Assembly (NCBI GenBank): GCA_964584785.1
Contig: CAZPBY010000012.1
Location: forward strand, 1-50,451
Source of the DNA: an uncultured Solibacteraceae bacterium
GTDB taxonomy: Bacteria > Acidobacteriota > Terriglobia > 20CM-2-55-15
DNA length: 50,451 nucleotides
Direction of reading: 5' to 3'
Shown here: positions 4,784 to 38,179 of the stretch, one piece after another
How the letters are laid out: the number at the start of each line of letters is the position of its first letter
How positions within the stretch are numbered: position 1 is the stretch's first letter
Translations under genes and position numbers: made by a program
The notes under the pieces: generated by a model
Database searches by the model: none
Seen by the model: only the letters and a program-made list of their open reading frames with translations
Told to the model about the DNA's origin: nothing

Positions 4784-5944
4784 TTAGGAGCGTGTGAGAG
4801 AGGCCACGACCTGCTCGGCTACAAAATCGAGTTCGTCGTAGCCGATCGTCAGCGGGGGAAGAAAGCGCAGGACGGTACTGCCGGCGGGCATGGCGAGGAC
4901 GCCAAGGTCCATCAACTTCATCAGGTAAGGCTGGCCCTTTTCCTTGAGTTCGATCCCGACCATCAAGCCGAGGTGACGAATCTCGCGCACACTGTCGAAG
5001 GGATGCTCACGTAGCTTGCCCGTAAAGTAATCACCTTTCTGTTGCGCCTGCTTGTCGAGTTTGTTTTCCAGCATGAAGTCGATGGCCGCGCTCCCAGCGG
5101 CGCAAACAAGCGGATTGCCGCCAAACGTGCTGCCATGTTTGCCCATGGGGGGCTGAATCTTCTCCGAACAAACGGCAGCGCCCATTGGAAGGCCGCCGGC
5201 AATGGCCTTGGCAACGCACAGGATATCCGGCTCGAGGCCGAAGTGTTCGCACGCAAACATTCTGCCGGTGCGGCAGAAGCCGGTCTGAACTTCATCGATG
5301 ATCAATAAGAGATCCTTCTCGTCGCATAGTGTTCGGACCTGCCTGAAGTACTCGCCGCTTCCGACGTGCACGCCGCCCTCACCCTGAACGATTTCCAGAA
5401 TGATACCTGCAGTAGAGTCGTTTACCTTTTCCTGCAGCTTTTCGAAATTGTTGAATGGAACGTAAGTGAAACCGGGCACGACAGGTTCGAATTCCCTGCG
5501 ATATTCCGGATTGAATGTTGCGCTCATCGCGCCCATGGTACGGCCGTGGAAGCCGCGCATCGCACAGATGAACTCCGTTTTCCGGGTGGTGAAACGGGCG
5601 AACTTGATCGCGGCCTCAATGGTTTCCGTGCCGGAGTTGCACAGGAAAGCGCGCTTCAGGTTCCTCGGCGCAATGGACAAGAGTTTTTCCAGGAACGATG
5701 CCCGCGCATCGTTGTAGAGACTTGACGAGCAACTGATCAGGCGCCTTGCCTGCCGCTCCACTGCCGCTACGACGGTTTCATTGCCATGCCCAAGACTGGC
5801 CACACCGTGACCCGCAATGCAATCGATGTACTCGCGGCCGTTCTCGTCCCATACCTTCGCGTTCTTACCCCGCACGATCACGAGATCGCGCTTCGGGTAA
5901 ACGCTGAATTCGTACGCAGCTTCGAGTGCCTTGAAGTCCGTCAC
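4784..5944 (-). CDS. lysJ: Class III aminotransferase, acetylornithine / [LysW]-aminoadipate-semialdehyde aminotransferase
   Basis: It carries the PLP-enzyme motifs [20 protein letters not shown] and [11 protein letters not shown] (Lys). A GTG start overlaps the lysZ stop (GTGA), and it is the last gene of the lysW cluster. Confidence 0.85.
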
Positions 5945-6732
5945 TGAATAGTCGTCCCGTTTCCGGCAAGAGCATCGCGGATCGGGTGTTCCACCCTGCC
6001 GTCGCTGATGAAAATTCGGCTCGCGCCGTTGGCAGCGAGCCTTCGTAGGGCGAGCATCTTTCGTTTCATACGGCCTTCGACCTGAGCTTCCCGCAATTCC
6101 AGTTCTGCTTTAGAGATGTGCCGCACGAGAGAATCCGCGTTGTGAATATCGTCCATGAACCCCGGCGCCTCGATCAATTGGATGATCGTGCCCGCATGAA
6201 GGGTTTCCTGCAAGAGACTGACGATGTCGTCGTTTTCGGAATTAATCGCAGTGTTGTTTTCGTCGAGAATCGGGATGCAAAGCACCGGTATGTAGCCGTG
6301 GTCCAGCAACAGTGTGATCAGTTGGTGATTCACGCTTCTGGGCTTGCCGGAGTAGTCATGCATCATGATGGTCTTCTCGTTCTGGCGGACGCGGATGCCT
6401 TTGTTGCGGGCGCCTTGCACGATCTTGCCGTCGATTCCCGAGAGTCCGACCGCGTTGATGCCATATTGCTGGCACAGTTCGACGAGGCGCTTATTCTGAA
6501 GGCCGGCATAACCCATCATGATCGCATCGATGGCCTTCTCGTCCGTCAGTACGCTGCTGTAGCCGGACACCGACGTGACGGTTTTCGTCGGGTGTCCCAT
6601 CTTCGTCGCGATATCGTCGCGCACAGCATTCGCGCCGTGGACGATGATGTATTTTTCGTTCAGGCCCGCCAGATCCTGAACCACACCTTTCAAATTGACC
6701 TCTCTTCCGCCGCCGACTTTAACGATAATCAT
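5941..6732 (-). CDS. lysZ: Amino-acid kinase family, [LysW]-aminoadipate kinase / acetylglutamate kinase
   Basis: The N-terminus MIIVKVGGG and the motif IIVHGANAV match the ArgB/LysZ fold. Its start ATG overlaps the upstream gene's stop (ATGA). Confidence 0.85.
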   Translation of the reverse strand: MIIVKVGGGREVNLKGVVQDLAGLNEKYIIVHGANAVRDDIATKMGHPTKTVTSVSGYSSVLTDEKAIDAIMMGYAGLQNKRLVELCQQYGINAVGLSGIDGKIVQGARNKGIRVRQNEKTIMMHDYSGKPRSVNHQLITLLLDHGYIPVLCIPILDENNTAINSENDDIVSLLQETLHAGTIIQLIEAPGFMDDIHNADSLVRHISKAELELREAQVEGRMKRKMLALRRLAANGASRIFISDGRVEHPIRDALAGNGTTIQ

Positions 6733-7382
6733 CGCGCCCCCGACGTGATTCCGAACGACCGGAACGTTCCGCTCTCGATCTTCTCCCAGCGCTCCGGGCC
6801 TGGTAAGACTTCGGATGCGATCACCAGCCTCCCGCTGTCCGTGGTGAACTGCATGGTGAAATAGTCGGGGTCCTCGTTGAACAACGATGCGACGTAAACG
6901 GTCGACATGTCCGCCATAATGATGTTCATCGCTCGAATGTACGTGGTTCGTTTACGGATGACTTCCACGCCGCGCTCGAGAGCATCGATCATATCTCCGC
7001 GGTCGAAGCGCTTGATGAAGTTGAATATCTTCTCGGCACCGATCCTGCCTTTCTCCGAGATGCGCACTCCTCGAAGTTCGCCGTTGAAGATGAACACATG
7101 ACGATCGTCGTAGAAGGGCATGTTGTTCTCCACGGCAATGCCTTCGTCCTTGAACGCGCTCCGCGCGTGCGCCAGCAGGAGCCGGCTTTTTCCGAACTCA
7201 AAGCGGGATTCCCAGATCGGTTGAATGTTCTTGTAATGTTTCCACGCGCCGTCCTCGATGTACGCACAGCCCCAGCCGTGACCCTGAAATTCCCTGCTAT
7301 GTTTCGCGATGAAAGCGAGCCGCTCCAGTTGCTCCGCGACTGCAAATTCATGGTCGGACTTTACGAGCAGAAGCCGGCACAT
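6729..7382 (-). CDS. Class II glutamine amidotransferase-like Ntn hydrolase (GATase_4/YafJ type), embedded in the lysW cluster
   Basis: The N-terminal Met-Cys nucleophile (MCRLLLV), LAHARSAF, NNMPFY and FIFNGEL are all class II GATase hallmarks. It is coupled to argC upstream (1-nt gap) and to lysZ downstream (ATGA overlap). Confidence 0.75.
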   Translation of the reverse strand: MCRLLLVKSDHEFAVAEQLERLAFIAKHSREFQGHGWGCAYIEDGAWKHYKNIQPIWESRFEFGKSRLLLAHARSAFKDEGIAVENNMPFYDDRHVFIFNGELRGVRISEKGRIGAEKIFNFIKRFDRGDMIDALERGVEVIRKRTTYIRAMNIIMADMSTVYVASLFNEDPDYFTMQFTTDSGRLVIASEVLPGPERWEKIESGTFRSFGITSGAR

Positions 7383-7383
7383 T

Positions 7384-8448
7384 TTAAAGAGGATGAAGAC
7401 CGGGGAATTCCAGGCCCGCGGTTTCGTCGAATCCGTGCATCAGGTTGAACGCCTGGACCGCTTGACCGGCCGCGCCCTTCATCAAATTGTCGATGGCGCT
7501 GATGACGACAAGGCGATTCGATTTCTCGTCCCTCTGAAATCCGATATCGCAGTAGTTCGTGCCCGCAAGCCATTTGGGCTCCGGGTAACGGTACGTTCCT
7601 TCGGCTTCTTTAACGATCCGGATAAACGGCTCCTGACCGTAAACCTGCCGCAGGACTTTCCAGATGTCCTTGTCCGCCAGCTTGTCTTTCAAAAACACGT
7701 GAGACGTCGCGAGCGCACCGCGCACTAATTCAACTGAAGTGACCGACAGGTGAATCTGGATGGGGTTGCCGAAGCTTAATTCCTGCAGGACCTCGCCTGT
7801 GTGGCGATGCCCGGTAGGCATGAACGAACGCACGGCCCCACTGCGTTCCGGATGATGCGAGGAAGCGCTCGGTATATTGCCGCCTTCGCTCGACCCGACC
7901 TTGACTTCAACAACGGTGCGGTCCGGTTCAACGAGTCCGAGCTTATAAAAAGGATACAGCCCCAGGATGGTCGCGGTCGCGTTACAACCTGCACTGGATA
8001 CGAGATCGGCTCCTCTCATCTCATCTCGATGCAGTTCGGGTATGCCGTAAACAAACGTACCCAGAAGGTCGGGCCGTGCGTGGGGCTTGCCATACCAGTC
8101 CTTATAGGCAGTCTCGGTCCGCAAACGGAAGTCGGCGCTCAGATCGACGATTTTGCGGCCGACCGATTTGAAGAAATCGATCTTTCCCATGGCTTCGCCA
8201 TGCGGCAAGCAGCTGAACAGCACGTCGCACGAACGCAACTCGTCCAATTTCGAAAACTGCAGCTCGGTTTTCTTCCGCAGATTCGGGTGAGCCTTGAAAA
8301 CCAACTTGCCGGCCAGGCGCTCGGAAGTGACCTGCATTATTTCGACGCGCGGATGGCCCAGCAGCACTCGCAATAATTCGCCGCCGGTATAACCCGACCC
8401 GCCGGCTATGGCGCACTTTACTTTGTCCACCATGCTACTTTCCGGCAA
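7384..8448 (-). CDS. lysY: N-acetyl-gamma-glutamyl-phosphate / [LysW]-aminoadipyl-phosphate reductase
   Basis: It has the NAD(P) Rossmann motif [17 protein letters not shown] and the ArgC family fold, over 354 aa. Its start overlaps the lysX 3' end by 14 nt. Confidence 0.9.
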
Positions 8449-9283
8449 CCCGAAGCACGTAATCGACGATCATTTTCGGAATATCGACGCCGGTCGTGGT
8501 GATGCTGTTACGAAACTCCATGGTGTAGTTCACTTCGTTGACCTGGAGTCCGCGCTCGGTTTCGAAGATATCGATGGCGACAACTCCACCGCCCACAGCG
8601 TTTGCAGCTCGCACCGAAAGATCCTTCAGCTCGTTTGTCAACGGACAGTTGAATGCCTTGCCTCCCTGAGCGGTGTTCGTGATCCAGTGGTCCGAAACCC
8701 GATAGATGGCCGCGATGCATTCATCGCCGACGACGAAGCTTCGAATATCGCGCCCTTTTTTCTCGATGTATTTCTGAATGTAGAAAATCGAGTGATGGTA
8801 GCTTCCGAGCGTGACCTTGTGCTCGAGGATCGTTTCAGCAGCATCCCGATCATTGACCTTGGCGAGCAGCCTTCCCCACGAACCCACGGCCGGTTTCAGC
8901 ACGACCGGGTATCCCATCGCTTCGATGGCCTGCAGCGCCGATTCCTCCGTGAATGCGATCCGCACTTCCGGCTGCGGCACTTTGTGCTCTTCGAGCGCGA
9001 TCGACGTCAGCATCTTGTCGCCGCAGATCGTCGCGACGTGCGAAGTATTTACGCATTTCACTCCCGCCGATTCGAACAGTCGCAACGCGTGAAGCGCTCG
9101 AGAATGGTTGATGCATCTTTCCAGGACGACATCGAAAGGAAAGTGATCTCTGCCGAGGTTGAACGCCAGTTTCCGGTCGTCGAGCATCACGGTCTCAACG
9201 CCGCCACGACTCGCAAACTCCTTGAGGATGAATTTTTCCTCGGGACGAATGAGCGAGTGGAGAAAACCGACTTTGATGCTCAT
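8435..9283 (-). CDS. lysX: RimK/ATP-grasp ligase LysX (alpha-aminoadipate--LysW ligase)
   Basis: The ATP-grasp fold is evident ([41 protein letters not shown]). The true start is MSIKVGFLH at 9281-9283, with a GAGGAGG SD; the ORF track's extension to 9364 covers lysW. Its ATG overlaps the lysW stop (ATGA). Confidence 0.85.
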
Positions 9284-9444
9284 TGCCCCCAATCCTCCTC
9301 TTCGGTCGGGGCCTCGGCGAGTATCGCAGGATGGACCCCTTTGACTTCCAGTTCCGAACCGCATTCCTTGCAGGAAATGAGTTCTCCCACCACCGCATCG
9401 TCACCCAGGTTCACCGTGGCACCGCAAATGGGACACTCAGCCAT
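9280..9444 (-). CDS. lysW: Amino-group carrier protein LysW (54 aa, zinc ribbon plus acidic EDWGQ tail)
   Basis: Manual translation gives [54 protein letters not shown]. The CxxC...CxxC zinc ribbon and C-terminal EDWG tail are diagnostic of LysW. A GGAGGA SD sits upstream. The ORF is below the 60-aa cutoff of the supplied track. Confidence 0.85.
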
Positions 9445-24953: not shown

Positions 24954-26771
24954 ATGCGAACAATTCCAATTGCCCTTTTGATGCTCGTGACGCTGTCGGC
25001 CTGTACGACGAACAGCAGCGGTGTCACTGCCAATCCGACCGCGGCTGACGCCGGGAAATTCATTAATGAAGTCAACCAGACGATCGAACGTCTGGCGACA
25101 GCGAGTTCGCAAGCCTCGTGGGTCGCCGAAAACTTCATCACCGACGACACGCAGGCGATCAATGCGCGGGAAAACCAGCGGTTCATCGATCAGATCGCGA
25201 AATATGCGAAGGAGGCGGTGAAGTACGACAAAGTCGACGTGCCGCCGGATATTCGACGCCAGCTCAACCTGTTAAAAAATTCGCTGACGATGGCGACGCC
25301 TTCGGATCCGAAGGAAGGCGAAGAACTGACCAGGATCGCCGCAAGCCTCGACGCCACGTACGGCAAAGGCAAATGGTGCGAAGACAATCCCGGCAAGCCC
25401 GAAACATGTCACGACATCGACAAGATCACCAACATCATGGCCGACACGAAGACCGACGAGAAGCGTTTGCGGCAGGTGTGGGAAGGCTGGCAGACGATCG
25501 CCCAGCCGATGCGAAAGGACTACACCCGCTTCGTCGAACTTTCGAACAAGGGCGCCAGGGAATTGGGATTCGTCGACACCGGCGCCATGTGGCGGTCGAA
25601 ATACGACATGACGCCGGAAGAGTTCACGAAGGAACTCGATCGCCTGTGGGAGCAGGTGAAGCCGTTCTATCTGTCGCTCCACGCGTACGTCCGCATGAAG
25701 CTTCACGACAAGTACGGCGACATCGTTCCGGCGAACGGCCCCATCCCTGCACACCTCCTGGGGAACATCTGGGCGCAACAGTGGGGCAACATTTACCCGC
25801 TCGTCAAACCCGCGAACGCCGATGCCGGCTATTCGCTCACGGACATTTTGAAGCGGCGCAACACCAAACCCCTCGATATGGTCCGAATCGGCGAGCGGTT
25901 CTACACATCCCTGGGTTTTGCCCCGCTGCCGCCGACATTCTTTGAACGATCGTTGCTTGTGCGTCCTCGCGACCGCGACGTGGTCTGCCATGCGAGCGCC
26001 TGGGACATCGATAACGTCGACGACCTGCGCATCAAGATGTGCATCGAGCCGAAGGAAGAAGACTTCGACACGATCCATCACGAACTCGGGCACAACTTCT
26101 ATCAACGCGCTTATAACAAATTGCCGATGATGTTCCGGGACAGCGCGAACGACGGCTTCCACGAAGCGATCGGCGACACGATTGCGCTGTCGGTGACGCC
26201 GGAGTATCTCGTCAAAATCGGCCTGCTCGACAAGGCGCCCGATCAATCGCGCGACATCGGCCTGCTGCTGACACGCGCGCTCGACAAAATCGCGTTCCTT
26301 CCCTTCGGTCTGCTGATCGATCAGTGGCGTTGGAAGGTTTTTTCGGGAGAAGTGAAACCGGAGGACTACAACAAAGCCTGGTGGGATCTGCGGCTGAAGT
26401 ATCAGGGCGTCGCTCCGCCGTCAAATCGGGCTGAGGAGTTCTTCGATCCGGGGGCCAAATACCATGTGCCGGGCAACGTGCCGTACACGCGTTATTTTCT
26501 CGCGGACATCCTGCAGTTCCAGTTTCATCGAGCGCTTGCCAAGACCGCTGGTTGCACCACCGCTCTTCACCGATGCTCGATCTACGAGAGCAAGGAAGCC
26601 GGTGCGAAACTGAACGCGATGCTGTCGATGGGCGTTTCCAAGCCGTGGCCCGAGGCACTCGAAGCCATTGCGGGGACTCGTCAGATGGATGCGACGGCAA
26701 TCACCGACTATTTCGCGCCGCTGAAAGCCTGGATGGACGAGCAGACCAAAGGGAAACCCGTCGGTTGGTAA
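24954..26771 (+). CDS. Peptidase M2 (angiotensin-converting-enzyme-like peptidyl-dipeptidase) lipoprotein
   Basis: The zinc motif is HHELGHNFYQ...HEAIGDT (HExxH + E, with the spacing of M2/ACE). The signal peptide has a lipobox, MRTIPIALLMLVTLSAC. Confidence 0.8.
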   Translation: MRTIPIALLMLVTLSACTTNSSGVTANPTAADAGKFINEVNQTIERLATASSQASWVAENFITDDTQAINARENQRFIDQIAKYAKEAVKYDKVDVPPDIRRQLNLLKNSLTMATPSDPKEGEELTRIAASLDATYGKGKWCEDNPGKPETCHDIDKITNIMADTKTDEKRLRQVWEGWQTIAQPMRKDYTRFVELSNKGARELGFVDTGAMWRSKYDMTPEEFTKELDRLWEQVKPFYLSLHAYVRMKLHDKYGDIVPANGPIPAHLLGNIWAQQWGNIYPLVKPANADAGYSLTDILKRRNTKPLDMVRIGERFYTSLGFAPLPPTFFERSLLVRPRDRDVVCHASAWDIDNVDDLRIKMCIEPKEEDFDTIHHELGHNFYQRAYNKLPMMFRDSANDGFHEAIGDTIALSVTPEYLVKIGLLDKAPDQSRDIGLLLTRALDKIAFLPFGLLIDQWRWKVFSGEVKPEDYNKAWWDLRLKYQGVAPPSNRAEEFFDPGAKYHVPGNVPYTRYFLADILQFQFHRALAKTAGCTTALHRCSIYESKEAGAKLNAMLSMGVSKPWPEALEAIAGTRQMDATAITDYFAPLKAWMDEQTKGKPVGW

Positions 26772-32055: not shown

Positions 32056-34521
32056 CTACGACGGAAGGTAGTGCAAAAGTTTCAAAATATCCGAAAACAC
32101 TCCCATGGCGGTGACGTCCGCGCCGGCGCCGGGACCCTGCACAACGAGCGGTGTGTTGTGATAACGCTCGGTGGTGAACACGATGATGTTGTCGCTGCCT
32201 TTGGTGGACGCCAGAGAATGCGAATACGGAACTTCTTTCAAACCCGCAGAGCCGATACCATCCGAAAGACTGCCGATGTAGCGCAACACCATGTTCCGTG
32301 AACTCGCCGCCGCCGATCGTCGACGCATATCGGAATCGAACGAAGCCAGCTTGTCGAAGAAATCGCTCGAGAACGCGCCGCCGCGCAGTTTCCTGGGGAC
32401 TAGGCTCTCGACTCGAATATCTTCGAGTTCCATTTTCGCGCCGAGCTGCCTCGCCAGTATCAGCAGCTTTCGACCGACGTCGATTCCCGACAGATCGTCG
32501 CGCGGATCCGGCTCGGTGTAGCCCTTCAAATGGGCGTCGCGCACCAGTTCGCTGAAACGGCGCGTTCCATCGTAATTATTGAAGAGGTAACTCATCGTGC
32601 CGGAAAAGATCCCGTCGATCCGGTGGATGGTGTCGCCGCTCGAAATCAAATCCTTCAGCGTCGAGATGATCGGAAGACCCGCGCCCACATTGGCCTCGTA
32701 GAGAAAATGCTTCTGCCGTCTCCGGAGCAGATCCACCAGTTCCCGGTAGCTCTCCCAAGGCAACACGTTCGCTTTCTTGTTTGGCGTGACGATGTGCATG
32801 TTGGCTTTCACGAAGCCGGGATAGGAGCTCACAATTTCCGGACTCGCCGTGCAATCGACCAGCGCAACGTTGGTCAGGTCCATCTTCGCCACTTCGTCCG
32901 CCAGAGTTTGCGAGCTGAAGGATTGCTTGCTCTTTGCAAACTCTTCCCTCCAGCCTTGCAGATTGACGCCGTCGCGCTTCAGCAGAAGTTGTTTGCGGTT
33001 CGCAATACCGCAAACTCGAACGTCGAAAGCCTGCGCGCGAAGGAACGCCTGCTGCTGATCGAGCTGTTTCAACAGCGCCGCTCCGATGTTTCCGATGCCG
33101 ACCACAAAGAGAGCCAGATGTTTCCGCTTTTCGAAGAACGCTTCATGGATAACGTTCAGCGCGCGGGTTCTGTTCCGGGCGTCAACCACAAGCGAGATGT
33201 TGAGTTCGGACGCTCCCTGCGCGATCGCATCGACGTTGATATTATTCCTTCCGAGCGCCTGAAAGACGCTCCCCGCAACACCGGGCGTTCCCTTCATGCC
33301 TTCACCGACAATGGCCACGATGGTTTGCGACGGCTTCTCATCCAGCGACGTCAGCGCATGTTGAAGCTCGTAGCGGAATTCATGCTGGATCGCACGACGC
33401 GCGCGCCCGACGTCCGGCGAGTTCACCGCGAAGCAGATGGTGTGCTCGGACGACGCCTGGGAAATCAGAATGACGTTGACCTGATTCGATGCCAGTGAGC
33501 GAAACAGCCGTTCGGCGGTACCGGGCACGCCGACCATACTCATGCCGCGCAGCGTCAGGAGGGTGATGTCGTCGACTGCGGTAATTCCTTTCGCCACGAT
33601 GTACCGTTCGTCGACCTGCTTCGAGATCATCGTCCCGGGCGTGGACGGGTTCATCGTGTTCTTGATGAGTATCGGGATGTTCTTCGCCACAGCGGGAGCG
33701 ATCGTGGACGAGTGAAGAACCTTTGCGCCGAAATAAGACAATTCCATCGCCTCTTCGTACGAAAGCCTGGGCTGAACGAACGCGGCCGGAACCGCGCGCG
33801 GATCGGCGCTGTACACGCCATCGACGTCGGTCCAGATTTCGATCACGGATGCGTCGAGAGCCGCGCCGACAATCGCCGCGGAATAATCCGAACCGTTGCG
33901 GCCGATCGTCGTGGTTCGTCCGTCGGCCGTGCGCGCGATGAAGCCGGTCACGATCGGTATGGTGTTCCTGTTCGCTCGATCAAAATGTTTTTTGAAATAA
34001 GTCTGAATGGCTTTGTTGGTCTGATCGAACTGCACGGCCGCATGCGTGAACTGATCGTCGGTGATAATGATGTCGCGAGAGTCGACATACTCCGCGGGGT
34101 TCTTCGACCGCAGGTAAGAGGCGATGGTTATTGCGGAGAGGCGCTCGCCGAAACTTCCAACAATGTCCAGAGCGCTCGGAGGACAGTCGCGCAGAAGGTA
34201 AATTCCCTGCAGGACATTCCGCAACTCCTGCAGCTCCGATTCAATTCGGGCGCGAGTTTCACGGCCCGCAGGCCTCTTATCGTGAAGAGACTTCACTGCA
34301 TCGATGTGGCGCTGGAGCAGTTTGTCGTAGCCTTTGGTGTAGTCCGCGTCTCCGGAAGCCGCTCGCTGCGCACATTCGAGCAGCTGATTCGTAATACCCT
34401 GAAAGGCAGACACCACGACCGCGACGCGTTCTTTTTTTGCGGCCTGAAGCACGATGGCGCAAACGTCACGGATACGGCCGGGAGTGGATACCGAAGAACC
34501 GCCGAACTTGAGGACTCGCAT
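32056..34521 (-). CDS. thrA: Bifunctional aspartokinase / homoserine dehydrogenase
   Basis: The N-terminal aspartokinase motif MRVLKFGGSSV and ACT region are followed by a C-terminal homoserine dehydrogenase domain (VVGIGNIGAALLKQL...GAGLPIISTL). The start is taken at the Met at 34519-34521. Confidence 0.88.
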   Translation of the reverse strand: MRVLKFGGSSVSTPGRIRDVCAIVLQAAKKERVAVVVSAFQGITNQLLECAQRAASGDADYTKGYDKLLQRHIDAVKSLHDKRPAGRETRARIESELQELRNVLQGIYLLRDCPPSALDIVGSFGERLSAITIASYLRSKNPAEYVDSRDIIITDDQFTHAAVQFDQTNKAIQTYFKKHFDRANRNTIPIVTGFIARTADGRTTTIGRNGSDYSAAIVGAALDASVIEIWTDVDGVYSADPRAVPAAFVQPRLSYEEAMELSYFGAKVLHSSTIAPAVAKNIPILIKNTMNPSTPGTMISKQVDERYIVAKGITAVDDITLLTLRGMSMVGVPGTAERLFRSLASNQVNVILISQASSEHTICFAVNSPDVGRARRAIQHEFRYELQHALTSLDEKPSQTIVAIVGEGMKGTPGVAGSVFQALGRNNINVDAIAQGASELNISLVVDARNRTRALNVIHEAFFEKRKHLALFVVGIGNIGAALLKQLDQQQAFLRAQAFDVRVCGIANRKQLLLKRDGVNLQGWREEFAKSKQSFSSQTLADEVAKMDLTNVALVDCTASPEIVSSYPGFVKANMHIVTPNKKANVLPWESYRELVDLLRRRQKHFLYEANVGAGLPIISTLKDLISSGDTIHRIDGIFSGTMSYLFNNYDGTRRFSELVRDAHLKGYTEPDPRDDLSGIDVGRKLLILARQLGAKMELEDIRVESLVPRKLRGGAFSSDFFDKLASFDSDMRRRSAAASSRNMVLRYIGSLSDGIGSAGLKEVPYSHSLASTKGSDNIIVFTTERYHNTPLVVQGPGAGADVTAMGVFSDILKLLHYLPS

Positions 34522-34769
34522 CGGAACAGCATACTTGAATCGCAAAGGGAGAGCGGAATTTGGAAACCGGCGATGTGTGTCACAATGAAACGGGGATGGA
34601 ATCAGCCAAGCGCCGGCGCCTTTCGATGCTGCGTTCGTACACGGTCGCCGATCTTTTTACCATCGGCAATGCGACGTGCGGAACGATTTATCCGTTGACC
34701 TTTATATATGCTCTGAGTGGAATGGGCATGATCAGCGCAACCATTCGAATTCCAAAACCTTAAAAACAG

Positions 34770-36758
34770 ATGAGTACAGCAGCACGATCTCGCCAGCCCG
34801 TCACAGCTGAAACGATGGCCGCCAAGCAGCGCGACATCTCCGTCAGCGAGTTTTTCGCGAAGAATCGTCACTTGCTGGGATTCGACAATCCGCGCAAGGC
34901 ACTGCTGACGGCGGTGAAGGAAGCCGTCGACAACTCGCTCGACGCCTGCGAAGAGGCCGCTATCGTTCCCGAAATCTGGGTGCACATCGAAACCACGGGA
35001 ACCAATCGCTACAAAGTCGGCGTGCAGGACAACGGACCGGGTATCGTGCGGAAACAGATCCCGCTGATCTTCGGAAAACTCCTCTACGGATCGAAGTTCC
35101 ATCGATTGCGCATGAGCCGCGGCCAGCAAGGCATCGGCATCAGCGCCGCGGGCATGTATGGGATGCTCACGACAGGGAAGCCGGTGAAGATCATCTCGAT
35201 GACTTCGCCGAAAAAGCCCGCGCATTACTTCGAAATCCAGATCGATACGCGGCGCAACCAGCCGGAAATCGTAAACGGAAAAGGCGACGGCGAGGATATT
35301 CCGTCCGGTGACGCGGGCCGAGCCTACATTGCGGAACACGGAATCGAATGGAAGGTACACTACCCCGACGGCGACGAGCAAGCCCATCATCGCAACGACG
35401 TTCGAAGCGGCACGCGTGTAACGATCGAGCTGGAAGGCCGATACGTTCGCGGACGCGGCAGCGTCGACGAATATCTGGCGCAGACCGCGATCGCGAATCC
35501 TCACGTCACGATTCATTACGTGGACCCGGAAGGAACCGAAACAACGTACGCGAGATCCTCCACGCAACTTCCGCCGGAACCGGTCGAGATCAAGCCGCAT
35601 CCCTACGGCATCGAGCTCGGCCAGCTGGTAACGATGTTGAAGAACTCTACCGGGGGGACGATGTCGCAATTCCTGACGACTTCGTTTTCACGCGTCAGTC
35701 CCGCCGTGGCGCAGAAGATTTGTGAGACCGCGAAAATCACGACGCGATCGAATCCCAAACGCATCGGGCGGCAGGAAGCAGACGCGCTGTACCACGCGAT
35801 TCAGGAAACCAGGATCAGCGCGCCGTCCACCGATTGCATCTCGCCGATCGGCGAAGCCCTGATCCTCAAAGGACTCCATCAGCAGGTGCCGGGCGAGTTT
35901 TTCACCGCCGCGACTCGTCCACCGGCGGTTTATCGCGGCAATCCGTTTCTGATCGAAGTCGGCCTGGCGTACGGAGCGGCCAGTCCCACACAGAAAGTGG
36001 CGCTCGATCAATTGACCGATCTGCTCGGCGAGAGCGATGCGCGGTCGGTCAAACAGTTTCTGCTGACGACATTCGACGGTATCGGCTCCTCGGGAGCGGA
36101 CAAAATTCTCTCGGAAGCTCGAATGGGGCCGCGGCAGGCGCCGTCGAAGCTGAAGACGGAAGAAATCGCCAGTCTCCACGCATCGATGAAAAACGTGAAT
36201 CTCTCCGAAGGTCAAACCATGCAGGTCCTGCGCTATGCGAATCGCGTGCCCCTTCAGTTTCAGCCCGCAGCCTGCGCTATCACGCAGGCGGTGATCGGCA
36301 ACAACTGGCGTTCTTACGGTCTGTCGCAGTCGCGGGGGCAAATGCCGGTCGGCCCGGTTACCGTGATGGTCCACATGGCCAGCGTTTGGGTGCCGTTCAC
36401 GAGCGAGTCGAAAGAAGCGATCGCGTCGTATCCGGAAATCATGAGAGAGCTGCGGCTCGGACTTCAGGCCGTCGGACGAAAGCTCGCGATTTACCTGAAT
36501 CGGCGGAAGCGCGTCCGACAGGAGGGCGAACGGCGTGAAATCTTCCTTCGCTATCTCGGCGAAGTTGCAGGCGCTGTCGCATCGATCAAGGAATACAGTG
36601 AAAGATCGAAGAAGGAGCTCTACGGCCGTCTGGTGGACGTCGCGAAGCGTAAGACCGCCGTCGCGGACGTTCAGATGGATCAGCGAGGGAAGAAGATCGA
36701 ACAGGTCGAGGAAGAACTCGGAGAGAATGTGTTGATAGTGGAGACTGAAGAAATTTAG
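34770..36758 (+). CDS. top6B: DNA topoisomerase VI subunit B (GHKL/Bergerat ATPase)
   Basis: The N-terminus aligns to archaeal Top6B (ISVSEFFAKNRHLLGFDNP). The Bergerat-fold motifs are present: the N-box KEAVDNSLDACEE, the G1 box VQDNGPGI and the G2 box GQQGIGISAAG. A transducer-like C-terminal half follows, over 662 aa. The start is uncertain between the ATG at 34770 and the ATG at 34815, and there is no SD. Confidence 0.85.
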   Translation: MSTAARSRQPVTAETMAAKQRDISVSEFFAKNRHLLGFDNPRKALLTAVKEAVDNSLDACEEAAIVPEIWVHIETTGTNRYKVGVQDNGPGIVRKQIPLIFGKLLYGSKFHRLRMSRGQQGIGISAAGMYGMLTTGKPVKIISMTSPKKPAHYFEIQIDTRRNQPEIVNGKGDGEDIPSGDAGRAYIAEHGIEWKVHYPDGDEQAHHRNDVRSGTRVTIELEGRYVRGRGSVDEYLAQTAIANPHVTIHYVDPEGTETTYARSSTQLPPEPVEIKPHPYGIELGQLVTMLKNSTGGTMSQFLTTSFSRVSPAVAQKICETAKITTRSNPKRIGRQEADALYHAIQETRISAPSTDCISPIGEALILKGLHQQVPGEFFTAATRPPAVYRGNPFLIEVGLAYGAASPTQKVALDQLTDLLGESDARSVKQFLLTTFDGIGSSGADKILSEARMGPRQAPSKLKTEEIASLHASMKNVNLSEGQTMQVLRYANRVPLQFQPAACAITQAVIGNNWRSYGLSQSRGQMPVGPVTVMVHMASVWVPFTSESKEAIASYPEIMRELRLGLQAVGRKLAIYLNRRKRVRQEGERREIFLRYLGEVAGAVASIKEYSERSKKELYGRLVDVAKRKTAVADVQMDQRGKKIEQVEEELGENVLIVETEEI

Positions 36759-36792
36759 AAATCGGACTCGTCCGACTTTCAATTCCCCTCGG
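36756..36792. repeat. Short palindromic element after top6B sharing a 17-mer (GAAATTTAGAAATCGGAC-like) with the termini of the large palindrome at 50297-50440
   Basis: It reads aatttagaaatcggac tcg tccgactttcaattcccc. Its ends match the outer ends of the 50297-50440 element, and it contains the hairpin tcggac-tc-gtccga. Confidence 0.4.
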
Positions 36793-36802
36793 GATCAGAA
36801 CC

Positions 36803-37936
36803 ATGGCGAAAAAAACGAAGAAAACTGAAACCCCGACTCTGACTGCCAAAGACAAGAAGACGTTGGGTTCCATCCGCGGGCTGGCGGATAGCGTGGCGCA
36901 ATCGGCGGATAAAGGTCGCGCGCCTTACGTCGATATTCCGTCGCGGTCGTTATCGAACGTTCGGTTCAATCAATCGAAACGCATCATCGAAATGGGCGCC
37001 GGCTCCAACCGCCGCGAACTTTTCAATCTCGCTCAGGCCCGAAGTTATATGCAGACCTTGCTCGTGGGATCCGGATGCAAGCAACTGATCGATCAATCCA
37101 AGACCACCAGCATCCGAGGTCTTTTCTATTTGTTGAAACACACCATCGAGGGCACGAACGAGGAAACGTTCGACACTCAGGCAGAATGCGATCCCATCAT
37201 CGAAGACATCGAGGTTTCGCTCGACGCGATGCGTGAAGAGCTTCATCTCTATGCGAAGAACGCCGGGGCTATGGTCGGCAACATCACGCTCGTCGACAGC
37301 GGCGACGAAATCGATTGCTCGCGGATGGGGTCCGGCGGCTACAGCATACCTTCCATCGTCGAACCCGACATCGTGCAGTTCAAGAAAAACACCGCCGAAT
37401 TCGTGCTGCACGTCGAAAAGGACACTGTCTGGCGGCGCTTCAATGAAGACAAATTCTGGCGCAAATACAACTGCATCCTCACCCACGGAGGCGGCCAGCC
37501 GCCTCGCGGCGTTCGACGCATGCTGCATCGACTGAATCATGAACTGAAACTGCCGGTGTACTGCCTTCTCGATAACGATCCGTGGGGATACTACATTTAC
37601 AGCGTCATCAAGCAGGGTTCGATCAATCTGGCGTATGAATCGCGACGCATGGCGATTCCCGAAGCCCGATTCCTTGGCCTTCGCAGCAACGACTACGAAC
37701 GATGCCAGCTCACGCCCAGCGTGCAGATCAAGCTAAACGACCAGGACATCAAGCGCGCGCGGCAAATCGCGCAGTACCCGTGGTTCGCGAACAAGAAGCC
37801 ATGGCAGAAGGAGCTCGATCTGATGCTCAAGAACGGCTTCAAGCTCGAAGTCGAAGCCCTGATCAGCAAAGACATCAGCTACGTCACCGAAACCTACGTA
37901 CCCGCGCGGTTGGAGGACGGCAACTTTCTGGACTAG
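36803..37936 (+). CDS. top6A: DNA topoisomerase VI subunit A (Spo11-like, 5Y-CAP + Toprim)
   Basis: The catalytic-Tyr context TSIRGLFYLLKH resembles Spo11 R-x-(I/F)-(F/Y)-Y. The Toprim acidic motifs are FVLHVEKDTVW (E) and VYCLLDNDPWGYYIY (DxD). It follows top6B in the archaeal B-A order, over 377 aa. Confidence 0.85.
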   Translation: MAKKTKKTETPTLTAKDKKTLGSIRGLADSVAQSADKGRAPYVDIPSRSLSNVRFNQSKRIIEMGAGSNRRELFNLAQARSYMQTLLVGSGCKQLIDQSKTTSIRGLFYLLKHTIEGTNEETFDTQAECDPIIEDIEVSLDAMREELHLYAKNAGAMVGNITLVDSGDEIDCSRMGSGGYSIPSIVEPDIVQFKKNTAEFVLHVEKDTVWRRFNEDKFWRKYNCILTHGGGQPPRGVRRMLHRLNHELKLPVYCLLDNDPWGYYIYSVIKQGSINLAYESRRMAIPEARFLGLRSNDYERCQLTPSVQIKLNDQDIKRARQIAQYPWFANKKPWQKELDLMLKNGFKLEVEALISKDISYVTETYVPARLEDGNFLD

Positions 37937-37980
37937 TGTCTCAATAAGGAGCGTTACGCGATCTTCTAAGGAGGCTCCGG

Positions 37981-38089
37981 GACTATCGTCCCTGCGCATC
38001 TGTTAAGAACCACCCCGTCTTCGCCTTCGGCTCAGACGCCTGAAGGGCGCAGCGGGGGTGGTTTGAAAAGATGCGAGCGGACGATAGTC
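37981..38089. repeat. Long imperfect inverted repeat (about 37-bp arms, 35-nt internally palindromic spacer) after top6A; a terminator or REP/MITE-like element
   Basis: The left arm gactatcgtccctgcgcatctgttaagaaccaccccg faces the right arm cgggggtggtttgaaaagatgcgagcggacgatagtc. The spacer contains ccttcggctcagacgcctgaagg. Confidence 0.5.
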
Positions 38090-38149
38090 GGCAAGCCACC
38101 TAAAAAGCCGCGCGAAGCGCATCCGATCCAGCCACGTCAGACTGTCGGG

Positions 38150-38155
38150 TATAAT
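38150..38155 (+). promoter_or_regulatory. Candidate -10 box, TATAAT (ggTATAATcc), 24 bp upstream of the GGT ATG; an AAAGGAGA SD lies at 38163-38170
   Basis: It is an exact TATAAT with good spacing to the SD and ATG. Call by sequence pattern only. Confidence 0.3.
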
Positions 38156-38179
38156 CCCGCGCAAAGGAGAAACTAATTT

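Follow-up and report, generated by a model that had tools for sequence, protein, structure and literature searches.

Bacterial topoisomerase VI (Topo VI) is a known yet poorly understood oddity, and its role in bacterial hosts was raised as a question in a 2024 survey (PMC11302465). The window analysed here, a stretch of 50,451 nucleotides of bacterial chromosome, carries two adjacent genes originally predicted to encode an archaeal-type Topo VI, and so raises the questions of whether the pair is genuine, where it came from and what it does for its host. We hold with considerable confidence that it is a working type IIB topoisomerase, most likely in an acidobacterial host and perhaps standing in for Topo IV there, and that it belongs to an old, probably planctomycete-derived lineage with a duplicated H2TH domain. 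The window enzyme is a further copy of a bacterial lineage already known from planctomycetes, with the duplicated H2TH as its one unusual feature; the current understanding of bacterial Topo VI is not overturned but receives three modest additions.

A complete Topo VI gene pair

The genes top6B (34770..36758, plus strand, 662 aa) and top6A (36803..37936, plus strand, 377 aa) encode Topo VI subunits B and A. They are co-oriented and adjacent in B-then-A order with a gap of 44 nt, exactly as first described, and form a two-gene chromosomal operon. The spacer (36759..36802, plus strand), which holds a weak 5-bp-stem hairpin at 36762-36775, probably lies inside a single transcript; the corresponding gap in relatives is just 4 to 14 nt. 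Sequence conservation supports the ATG at 34770 as the start of top6B: ahead of Met16, all 39 aligned homologues except the database entry P0001 keep the motif R.RVTAE.MAAKQRD, so that the 647-aa call of Top6B in that entry (start at 34815) is likely to be truncated. Divergent from top6B, as also noted originally, lies thrA (32056..34545, minus strand; Pfam AA_kinase, ACT and Homoserine_dh). The host is most likely an acidobacterium living in soil.

Profile, domain and structural-sequence matches identify both products as genuine Topo VI subunits. Top6B scores 670.8 bits against NCBIfam NF003218 (cut-off 274) and 506.8 bits against TIGR01052 (cut-off 380.7), clearing the equivalog threshold of a curated whole-protein family, with Pfam matches to Topo-VIb_trans (8.7e-51) and HATPase_c (8.4e-10) and a PDB sequence match to 2q2e_B (5e-141). 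All motifs quoted in the original prediction are present, in Top6B SEFF at residue 26, EAVDNSLDA at 51, DNGPGI at 87 and GQQGIGISAAG at 118. The GHKL/Bergerat ATPase domain (residues about 1-265) is evidenced by E51 and N55 of the N-box, D87 of G1 and a G2 box from G118, in columns that are invariant or nearly so in a 60-sequence alignment. The transducer (residues about 350-608, with a second H2TH set into it) has the switch lysine K548 within FTSESKEA, at least 90% conserved, a WKxY-type stalk motif reading WRSY (513-516) with W513 invariant, and a long helix at 555-607 in the AF2 model. That model (pLDDT 84.9, pTM 0.82) finds its best fold matches in the Top6B subunits of Methanosarcina mazei and Saccharolobus shibatae, with target-normalised TM-scores of 0.7-0.9 against archaeal Top6B, and ends in a short acidic tail, with no modelled counterpart of the Ig-like C-terminal domain found in M. 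mazei.

Between these two domains lies the canonical H2TH (35568..35807, plus strand, residues about 267-346), which aligns to that of M. mazei and is matched at 267-346 by the H2TH-containing Pfam family NFACT_N. Its AF2 helices span 283-291, 298-305, 311-321 and 334-346. The M. mazei DNA-contact residues R263, K268 and K308 correspond to T303, R308 and R348, so that one of the three contacts is lost (T303), and the KGRR T-segment-sensing loop is kept in part, reading RGRG here.

Top6A scores 557.9 bits against NF003333 (cut-off 465), matches Pfam TOP6A-Spo11_Toprim over the full profile (2.9e-61), TP6A_N (2.3e-14) and Topo_VI_alpha (6e-9), and finds 2zbk_A in the PDB (2.7e-75). It contains RGLFY at 105-109, VEKD at 204 and DNDPWG at 257. 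In its 5Y-CAP/winged-helix domain, the catalytic tyrosine Y109 and partner arginine R105 (IRGLFY) align with Y106 and R102 of S. shibatae 2zbk_A, the former of which we take to be the catalytic tyrosine of that enzyme; in the Toprim domain, E205 and D257/D259 align with its VVEKD and DADPYG motifs. The catalytic tyrosine, the Toprim acidic residues and a transducer with its switch lysine distinguish the pair from generic GHKL and Toprim proteins.

Two insertions in Top6B, one of them a duplicated H2TH

The enzyme has the same domains, catalytic residues and separate A and B subunits as archaeal Topo VI (M. mazei 2Q2E/9O0G, S. shibatae 2ZBK), but Top6B carries two additional, clade-specific insertions. 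Insertion 1 (35274..35405, plus strand, residues 169-212) lies in the GHKL domain, bears the conserved motif NG(K/R)G(D/E)G.DI..G..G......(I/L)(E/D)W, and forms an alignment gap against M. mazei Top6B, in which query residue 168 aligns to 161 and 213 to 172. Of 40 related loci holding that part of top6B, 39 have the insertion, which is modelled as a short strand and a helix (180-189) followed by low confidence to about residue 212, with pLDDT <50 at 197-209.

Insertion 2 (35982..36209, plus strand, residues 405-480) lies within the transducer and is, as judged from sequence similarity and predicted fold, a duplicated H2TH domain. It aligns without gaps to the canonical H2TH of the same protein (BLASTP, E 3e-10, 27% identity over 74 residues), matches Pfam H2TH (4.8e-4) and ribosomal S13 (3.8e-3), and, used as a phmmer query, picks out the canonical H2TH in some 40 distant Top6B representatives. 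In the AF2 model its helices repeat the pattern of the canonical copy, shifted by about +129 residues. Modelled alone (pLDDT 86), it has the M. mazei Top6B H2TH as top match (TMq 0.89, rmsd 0.8 A), followed by Fpg/MutM and then S13. All 40 related loci holding top6B, from two phyla, encode this second H2TH. The combination of a GHKL insertion with a second H2TH in the transducer places Top6B in a Planctomycetota-type clade; among 150 representatives at 50% identity, both insertions are confined to the cluster of the query and its fragments.

The second H2TH is probably the "unique alpha-helical bundle" of Pirellula staleyi Top6B, which reportedly projects into the enzyme's central cavity (PMC11302465). 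In that report the bundle was ascribed to P. staleyi and Cladocopium goreaui alone and was not named an H2TH duplicate (PMC11302465), whereas here it is present in every related locus holding top6B, across two phyla. The second copy is roughly neutral in charge and has lost all three basic residues with which the canonical H2TH contacts DNA and grips the gate-DNA arms. Given these losses, the domain might gauge or gate the transported duplex within the cavity, or alternatively might dock a bacterial partner protein. It is conceivable, though we would not favour it, that the duplication is a functional innovation altering DNA handling, one that perhaps enabled Topo IV replacement and inter-phylum spread; if so, the change may have let an archaeal-type enzyme replace Topo IV and cross bacterial phyla. 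A second H2TH devoid of the DNA-contact residues also offers a concrete target for mutagenesis.

A lineage common to Planctomycetota and Acidobacteriota

A total of 522 genome loci were confirmed to encode relatives. The original label "archaeal-type" calls for qualification: the nearest relatives are bacterial (hundreds of genomes, 71-91% identity), and identity to the archaeal structures is only 40% for Top6A (S. shibatae) and 49% for Top6B (M. mazei). Top6A identity is 88-91% to Acidobacteriota and 73-88% to Planctomycetota, and Top6B is about 65-76% identical to Planctomycetota loci. Among the planctomycetes, the Pirellulales enzymes of P. staleyi, Thermogutta terrifontis and Lacipirellula parvula, from a group catalogued by Allen and Maxwell in 2024 (PMC11302465), belong to the same clade as the window pair, have both Top6B insertions in common with it and likewise lack the Ig-like C-terminal domain. 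In the 38 related loci with a near-complete top6B, this gene lies directly upstream of top6A; in a similar number of Planctomycetota loci, top6B is missing within 6 kb.

The host phylum most likely differs from that of the catalogued enzymes: Acidobacteriota are missing from the 17 bacterial families of the published host list (PMC11302465 and its supplement). Topo VI nevertheless appears to be abundant in this phylum, probably in its soil members, and metagenomes yielded over 120 Top6B clusters whose identity of 81-88% matches that of named acidobacterial genomes. The conservation of top6B and top6A points to a widespread pair under purifying selection.

Simple neighbour-joining trees of the best 80 of the 522 loci, dependent for taxonomy on the labels of metagenome-assembled genomes and rooted with one distant archaeal sequence, carried out the phylogenetic check first proposed for this locus and placed both subunits within bacterial, planctomycete, diversity. 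In the Top6A tree, Acidobacteriota are monophyletic (100/100 bootstraps), nested among Planctomycetota (100/100) and sister to two of the other loci (L004 and L006) in 82/100; in the Top6B tree they are likewise monophyletic (100/100) and nested (100/100). Since the acidobacterial clade nests inside planctomycete diversity in both subunit trees, these data suggest that the whole operon passed long ago from a planctomycete to an acidobacterial ancestor, and the single acidobacterial clade argues for inheritance after one old event. The two subunits appear to have moved jointly and then become ordinary chromosomal genes. The pair is thus part of one bacterial Topo VI lineage, common to Planctomycetota and Acidobacteriota and marked by the two Top6B insertions.

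We consider it improbable that Acidobacteriota instead donated the operon to Planctomycetota, or that both phyla obtained it separately from a third lineage. Such histories gain some room from the weak determination of the bacterial root, which hangs on a single long archaeal branch, from the five acidobacterial genomes in the tree that remain when the best 80 loci are retained, and from a clade member in a genome labelled Deltaproteobacteria (L063). They are opposed by the shape of the diversity, in which a shallow acidobacterial set (88-91% identical among themselves) sits inside a deeper, mostly planctomycete radiation (68-99% identical), with Acidobacteriota-to-other identities of 73-88% falling within that range; a basal acidobacterial position is contradicted by 100/100 bootstraps in both subunit trees.

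Predicted role and chromosomal setting

By analogy with characterised Topo VI (PMC5922973, PMC13040014), described as a preferential decatenase (PMC8837201), the pair is likely an ATP-dependent decatenase and relaxase. Going by the archaeal homologues of solved structure, the subunits would assemble in pairs into an A2B2 enzyme, in which the Top6A dimer would bind and bend the gate duplex. Once ATP was bound, the GHKL clamp of Top6B would shut on a second duplex, and the transducer would signal closure to Top6A via K548. Y109 would then cut both strands, with Mg2+ held by E205, D257 and D259, and the second duplex would pass through the break before resealing, the net outcome being decatenation and relaxation of supercoils. 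The most probable cellular role would be chromosome unlinking and removal of positive supercoils beside gyrase, perhaps as a substitute for Topo IV. Outside Pseudomonadota and Terrabacteria, bacteria with Topo VI are reported to be without Topo IV (PMC11302465). Topo IV (ParC/ParE, type IIA) has the same expected job, ATP-dependent decatenation and relaxation, but its DNA-cleavage subunits are non-homologous to those of Topo VI, and the GHKL and transducer part of Top6B reaches query-normalised TM-scores of only about 0.35-0.38 against ParE and GyrB ATPase fragments.

Relatives of Topo VI also serve in other capacities (PMC7671362, PMC10123090, PMC13040014), and the clade-specific insertions mark a modified enzyme; the pair could on these grounds be a derived nuclease or defence module (Topo VIII/Mini-A, MksG/Wadjet-type or Spo11-like) or an accessory beside Topo IV. 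We regard this as very unlikely. Each subunit scores at equivalog level as a true Topo VI, and, in contrast to TopoVIB-like proteins, Top6B retains intact ATPase motifs, switch lysine, H2TH and stalk motif. The genes next to the pair include no defence genes, of Mks/Wadjet or other type, and the sequence is extremely conserved over two phyla.

Comparison with individual systems led to the same rejections. Topo VIII/Mini-A, also bacterial, has GHKL, H2TH, transducer, 5Y-CAP and Toprim modules in common with the window pair but joins its B-like and A-like parts in one polypeptide, or consists of an A-like module alone, and is carried by plasmids or integrated elements (PMC7671362, PMC4117785), in contrast to the two separate full-length genes, equivalog-level scores and chromosomal housekeeping context seen here. 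Phage records held no relatives, and plasmid records held relatives on haloarchaeal megaplasmids only (31-33% identity), with none on bacterial plasmids. A Spo11/TopoVIB-like break-forming complex, in which the GHKL fold is degenerate, the H2TH is missing and the B-like subunit stays under the Top6B family thresholds, was rejected on the intact ATPase motifs and H2TH and the equivalog-level Top6B scores.

The chromosomal setting bears on whether the operon could instead be a recent import, a foreign island perhaps taken straight from an archaeon. Bacterial Topo VI has a patchy distribution, and published trees place it inside archaeal diversity (PMC11302465), on which literature any archaeal origin, a remote one, rests; moreover, upstream of the operon the window has thrA where its closest relative has a CDP-alcohol phosphatidyltransferase gene, and farther acidobacterial loci have no flanking genes in common with the window. 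Against this, the order top6B, top6A, a GGT gene and a penicillin amidase gene recurs on an independent contig of that closest relative, whose Top6B is 88% identical. The pair also resembles its neighbours on the GC3 and codon-usage check proposed originally: GC3 is 0.71 in top6B and 0.73 in top6A (about 0.70-0.76 in most neighbouring genes), and in nearness of codon usage to the rest of the window they rank 3rd and 14th among 34 genes. No transposase, integrase or phage genes and no tRNA-border signs of integration were seen near them. With archaeal homologues 40-49% identical as opposed to 73-91% for bacterial ones, and the acidobacterial sequences forming a single clade, recent import is already largely refuted and scarcely credible; top6B and top6A are not recent arrivals but long-settled chromosomal genes.

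The local hints of foreign origin first put forward fare poorly beside composition, gene order and the absence of mobile genes. Neither top6B nor top6A has a Shine-Dalgarno-like motif, as observed then, but the accompanying statement that most neighbours do is unsupported because such a motif occurs at 5 of the 34 window genes (longest-ORF starts), and its rarity removes the contrast. The palindrome described at 36756-36792 reduces to the 5-bp-stem spacer hairpin, of a site type that is not enriched in the region (five terminator-like sites against 4.9 expected in shuffles).

The evidence for an acidobacterial host is indirect: an outer-membrane protein gene in the window has relatives named Acidobacteria, and the overall GC of 0.58 equals that of Bryobacteraceae and Sulfopaludibacter loci. 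Against it, the nearest named relatives of thrA are from Ignavibacteria and Bacteroidota.

The repeat noted at 37981-38089 is real and extends to a long imperfect hairpin (37963..38107, 55-nt arms) between top6A and the GGT gene. Folding of 37937-38179 gives z = -5.6; no Rfam match to the hairpin was found. The hairpin could mark the end of a transcript or represent a REP-like element, and its membership of the operon is uncertain. There is one copy within the window, and the hairpin core (38007-38031) has 18-23 nt in common with two related loci (L002 and L003), at unrelated positions.

Identity and catalytic residues of Top6B and Top6A

Bacterial topoisomerase VI (Topo VI) is established knowledge, and annotation pipelines already name such proteins (for example the database protein P0026, 'DNA topoisomerase VI subunit B [Terriglobia bacterium]'). 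Novelty here comes down to three points: the Acidobacteriota as a host phylum, which is not included in the published host list (PMC11302465) and for which our literature search found no paper making a link to Topo VI; tree evidence from both subunits for a planctomycete-to-acidobacterium transfer; and the assignment of a helical bundle in Top6B as a second H2TH domain devoid of the DNA-contact residues.

Both subunit genes lie exactly where the original prediction placed them, a 662-aa top6B ORF (34770..36758, + strand) being followed after 44 nt by a co-oriented 377-aa top6A ORF (36803..37936, + strand). Profile searches place both proteins in their families beyond doubt: Top6B scores 670.8 bits against NCBIfam NF003218 (cut-off 274) and 506.8 bits against TIGR01052 (cut-off 380.7) and matches Pfam Topo-VIb_trans at 8.7e-51, while Top6A scores 557.9 bits against NF003333 (cut-off 465) and matches TOP6A-Spo11_Toprim (2.9e-61), TP6A_N and Topo_VI_alpha. 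The closest solved structures agree, namely M. mazei Top6B (2q2e_B, 5e-141) and S. shibatae Top6A (2zbk_A, 2.7e-75). The AlphaFold2 model of Top6B (mean pLDDT 84.9, pTM 0.82) likewise has M. mazei and S. shibatae Top6B as its best fold matches (target-normalised TM-scores 0.7–0.9), with gyrase/ParE ATPase fragments ranking far below.

The motifs read from the DNA beforehand are all present, comprising SEFF at residue 26, EAVDNSLDA at 51, DNGPGI at 87 and GQQGIGISAAG at 118 in Top6B, and RGLFY at 105–109, VEKD at 204 and DNDPWG at 257 in Top6A. The catalytic tyrosine and the transducer are both there, so the pair is not a generic GHKL ATPase and Toprim protein. Top6B retains the general base E51, the Mg-binding N55, D87 of the G1 box and the G2 box, and in a 60-sequence alignment the switch lysine K548 (FTSESKEA) is conserved in at least 90% of sequences and W513 of the stalk motif WRSY (513–516; WKxY in M. 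mazei) is invariant. In Top6A, R105 and Y109 align with S. shibatae R102 and Y106, and the Toprim residues E205, D257 and D259 are retained. Top6B differs from the M. mazei protein in that the KGRR loop reads RGRG, and its model has no Ig-like C-terminal domain, the tail being short and acidic.

The database copy of this Top6B, P0001 (647 aa), begins at Met16 of the ORF and leaves out 34770–34814. The sequence upstream of Met16, 'R.RVTAE.MAAKQRDISVSEFF', is kept in 39 of 39 other aligned homologues, which makes the ATG at 34770 the better start and suggests that the P0001 gene call is probably 15 residues too short.

By homology with the archaeal enzymes, the subunits would form an A2B2 complex in which the Top6A dimer binds a gate duplex and bends it sharply while the H2TH domain and stalk of Top6B hold its arms. 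Upon ATP binding the GHKL clamp would close on a second duplex, and closure would be coupled via K548 and the transducer to Mg2+-dependent cleavage by Y109, after which the second duplex would pass through and the break be resealed. Topo VI acts preferentially as a decatenase (PMC8837201). Because a 2024 survey found no Topo IV in bacteria that carry Topo VI and belong to neither Pseudomonadota nor Terrabacteria (PMC11302465), the enzyme is likely, by analogy, to serve as the cell's decatenase and positive-supercoil relaxer beside gyrase.

Of the six NCBIfam PRK04342 sub-models that Top6A matches, five carry the name 'DNA topoisomerase IV subunit A', the top-scoring NF003333 among them, and so do the haloarchaeal plasmid matches; the sub-models so named actually describe Topo VI subunit A. 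Such labels could mask bacterial Topo VI in text searches.

A second H2TH domain in the Top6B transducer

Relative to M. mazei, Top6B carries two insertions, at residues 169–212 and ~405–480, the latter inside the transducer. Insertion 2 is the one unusual trait of this enzyme, and sequence comparison and structure prediction together indicate that it is a duplicated H2TH domain. It aligns with the protein's own canonical H2TH (~276–350) by BLASTP over 74 ungapped residues (27% identity, E 3e-10), it matches the Pfam families H2TH (4.8e-4) and ribosomal S13, itself an H2TH protein (3.8e-3), and when used alone in phmmer it finds the canonical H2TH of ~40 distant Top6B representatives. In the full AlphaFold2 model its helices (412–421, 427–434, 439–450 and 463–475) mirror those of the canonical copy (283–291, 298–305, 311–321 and 334–346) at an offset of ~+129 residues. 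Modelled in isolation (pLDDT 86), insertion 2 best matches the M. mazei Top6B H2TH (query-normalised TM-score 0.89, rmsd 0.8 A, 71 columns), followed in order by S. shibatae Top6B, Fpg/MutM glycosylases and S13.

The insertion is present in all 40 related loci that cover that part of top6B, in both phyla, and insertion 1 in 39 of the 40. Among the best 150 representatives at 50% identity, both are limited to the query's own cluster and its fragments. Insertion 2 is very probably the same element as the alpha-helical bundle published for Pirellula staleyi Top6B, where it is reported to face the central cavity; the authors name the dinoflagellate Cladocopium goreaui as its only other carrier (PMC11302465). 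That study does not recognise the bundle as an H2TH, whereas we assign it as one.

R263, K268 and K308 of the M. mazei H2TH touch the bent arms of the gate DNA (PMC5922973; cryo-EM PMC13040014). Their counterparts in the canonical H2TH of the window protein are T303, R308 and R348; the second copy has L432, G437 and N477 at these positions and is approximately neutral, compared with a charge of about +4 for the canonical domain. An additional DNA-arm contact of the canonical type is thus disfavoured. With the contact residues replaced and the charge near neutral, the second H2TH is conserved yet probably does not bind DNA canonically. We considered as possible roles the sensing or gating of the transported duplex, or the docking of a partner protein.

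Relatives and origin of the operon

The top genome matches to Top6A come from Bryobacteraceae, Candidatus Sulfopaludibacter and other Acidobacteriota (88–91% identity), followed by a long series of Planctomycetota (71–86%). Identity to the archaeal structures is 40% for Top6A (S. shibatae) and 49% for Top6B (M. mazei), compared with 73–91% for bacterial relatives. The original prediction had left it to phylogeny whether the proteins belong to a bacterial or an archaeal clade, and neighbour-joining trees (100 bootstraps) of proteins extracted from related loci nest the acidobacterial sequences of both subunits among those of other bacteria. The five acidobacterial sequences in the Top6A tree (82 sequences) are monophyletic in 100/100 replicates, are never basal to other bacterial sequences (100/100) and are sister to the planctomycete-labelled loci L004 and L006 in 82/100. 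The Top6B tree (38 sequences) recovers acidobacterial monophyly and nesting, each in 100/100. These values come from a simple method, a root formed by one long branch, the best 80 of 522 loci, and labels from metagenome-assembled genomes that may be wrong.

The acidobacterial sequences are shallow, being 88–91% identical among themselves. Their 73–88% identity to the other bacterial sequences, nearly all labelled Planctomycetota, falls inside the 68–99% that those others show among one another. The simplest reading of these sequences is a single event in which a Pirellulales-like planctomycete passed the complete operon to an ancestor of the acidobacterial group, with vertical descent thereafter. 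This fits the published account in which archaea gave Topo VI to bacteria on at least two occasions and secondary transfers between bacteria came afterwards (PMC11302465).

No top6B was found near top6A in about half of the Planctomycetota loci (L017, L020–L029, L031, L032, L034–L036, L038, L041, L043–L045, L048, L051, L053–L056, L059–L062, L064–L066, L068, L069, L072 and L076), of which L020, L025–L029, L041, L043 and L044, for example, cover 6 kb upstream of top6A, other loci being short or truncated contigs; the two genes are therefore unlinked in one large planctomycete subclade. Some clade members bear other labels (L063 a Deltaproteobacteria MAG, L066 Chitinophaga, and L022, L029, L044 and L045 Kuenenia), reflecting either further transfers or binning or labelling errors. 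For the 90%-identity cluster to which the window Top6A belongs, the representative is P0122 (MEI9904778.1, 54 aa, annotated 'hypothetical protein'), taken from the metagenome-assembled genome of an Asticcacaulis sp.; it is probably an acidobacterial fragment that strayed into this alphaproteobacterial bin.

Residence and genomic surroundings

Local clues had been taken as consistent with a foreign origin, and GC3, codon usage, Shine-Dalgarno (SD) and palindrome evidence all fail to bear this out. GC3 is 0.71 in top6B and 0.73 in top6A against ~0.70–0.76 in most neighbouring genes, and when genes are ranked by how close their codon usage is to that of the remaining window, the two come 3rd and 14th of 34. 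Both genes do lack an SD-like motif; the assertion that most neighbours have one does not hold, and since only 5 of the 34 window genes carry it (longest-ORF starts), its absence is normal here. The supposed palindrome in the top6B–top6A spacer is merely a 5-bp hairpin, no more than in shuffles.

The closest Top6B relative (P0002, 88% identical) is encoded on an independent contig in the order CDP-alcohol phosphatidyltransferase, top6B, top6A, gamma-glutamyltranspeptidase (GGT) and penicillin amidase, and the gene order 3' of top6A is the same as in the window. Only this closest metagenomic relative's contig has the window's downstream genes; the flanks of more distant acidobacterial relatives differ, and none of the 80 related genome loci contains a counterpart of thrA, GGT or the other genes around the operon. 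Plasmid or phage carriage was rejected: the phage records searched contain no relative of the Topo VI genes, and plasmid records match only haloarchaeal megaplasmids (31–33% identity). Given the native composition, the downstream synteny with P0002 and the lack of close phage or plasmid relatives, the operon is a long-resident chromosomal feature.

The surrounding genes are ordinary metabolic genes, and the window holds no integrase, transposase or phage gene and no gyrase or Topo IV gene; an Rfam scan of its whole length found no RNA family. The Bryobacteraceae and Sulfopaludibacter loci have the same GC as the window, 0.58, and an outer-membrane protein gene has Acidobacteria-named relatives at 56–64% identity. 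With thrA (below) pointing to other phyla, the signals on the host are mixed, and it is taken, with moderate confidence, to be an acidobacterium. Besides GGT and penicillin amidase, the window encodes several peptidases and Oar-like TonB-type outer-membrane proteins. A full-length angiotensin-converting-enzyme-like M2 peptidase is encoded at 24954–26771 (+ strand; Pfam Peptidase_M2 745 bits, whole profile). A LysX/LysY/LysZ/LysJ-type cluster (4784–9364, - strand) resembles the LysW-carrier (alpha-aminoadipate type) lysine/arginine pathway and comprises, all on the - strand, a RimK/LysX ATP-grasp gene (8435–9364), a semialdehyde dehydrogenase (7384–8448), a GATase-like ORF (6729–7382), an amino-acid kinase (5941–6732) and a class-III aminotransferase (4784–5944).

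As predicted, top6B is divergent from thrA (bifunctional aspartokinase/homoserine dehydrogenase; 32056–34545, - strand). The closest named relatives of thrA are Ignavibacteria/Bacteroidota (63–73% identity; best match overall 77%), and its history may be more exotic than that of the Topo VI genes. It is solitary in the window and the first gene of a thrA-thrB-thrC operon in the Ignavibacteriae contig L081. A 67-aa ORF (34560–34763, + strand) ends 6 nt before top6B, at the site that holds the 221-aa CDP-alcohol phosphatidyltransferase gene in the closest relative. The idea that it is a gene remnant gained no support, Pfam giving nothing even at E = 10 and tblastn no meaningful match.

A long hairpin (37963–38107; z = -5.6) lies 3' of top6A. 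Its core, GAACCACCCCGTCTTCGCCTTCGG, is matched over 18–23 bases in two acidobacterial loci, at unrelated positions (L002:2017–2039 and L003:3230–3247), where the copies adjoin other GC-rich palindromes, and may belong to a REP-like repeat family.
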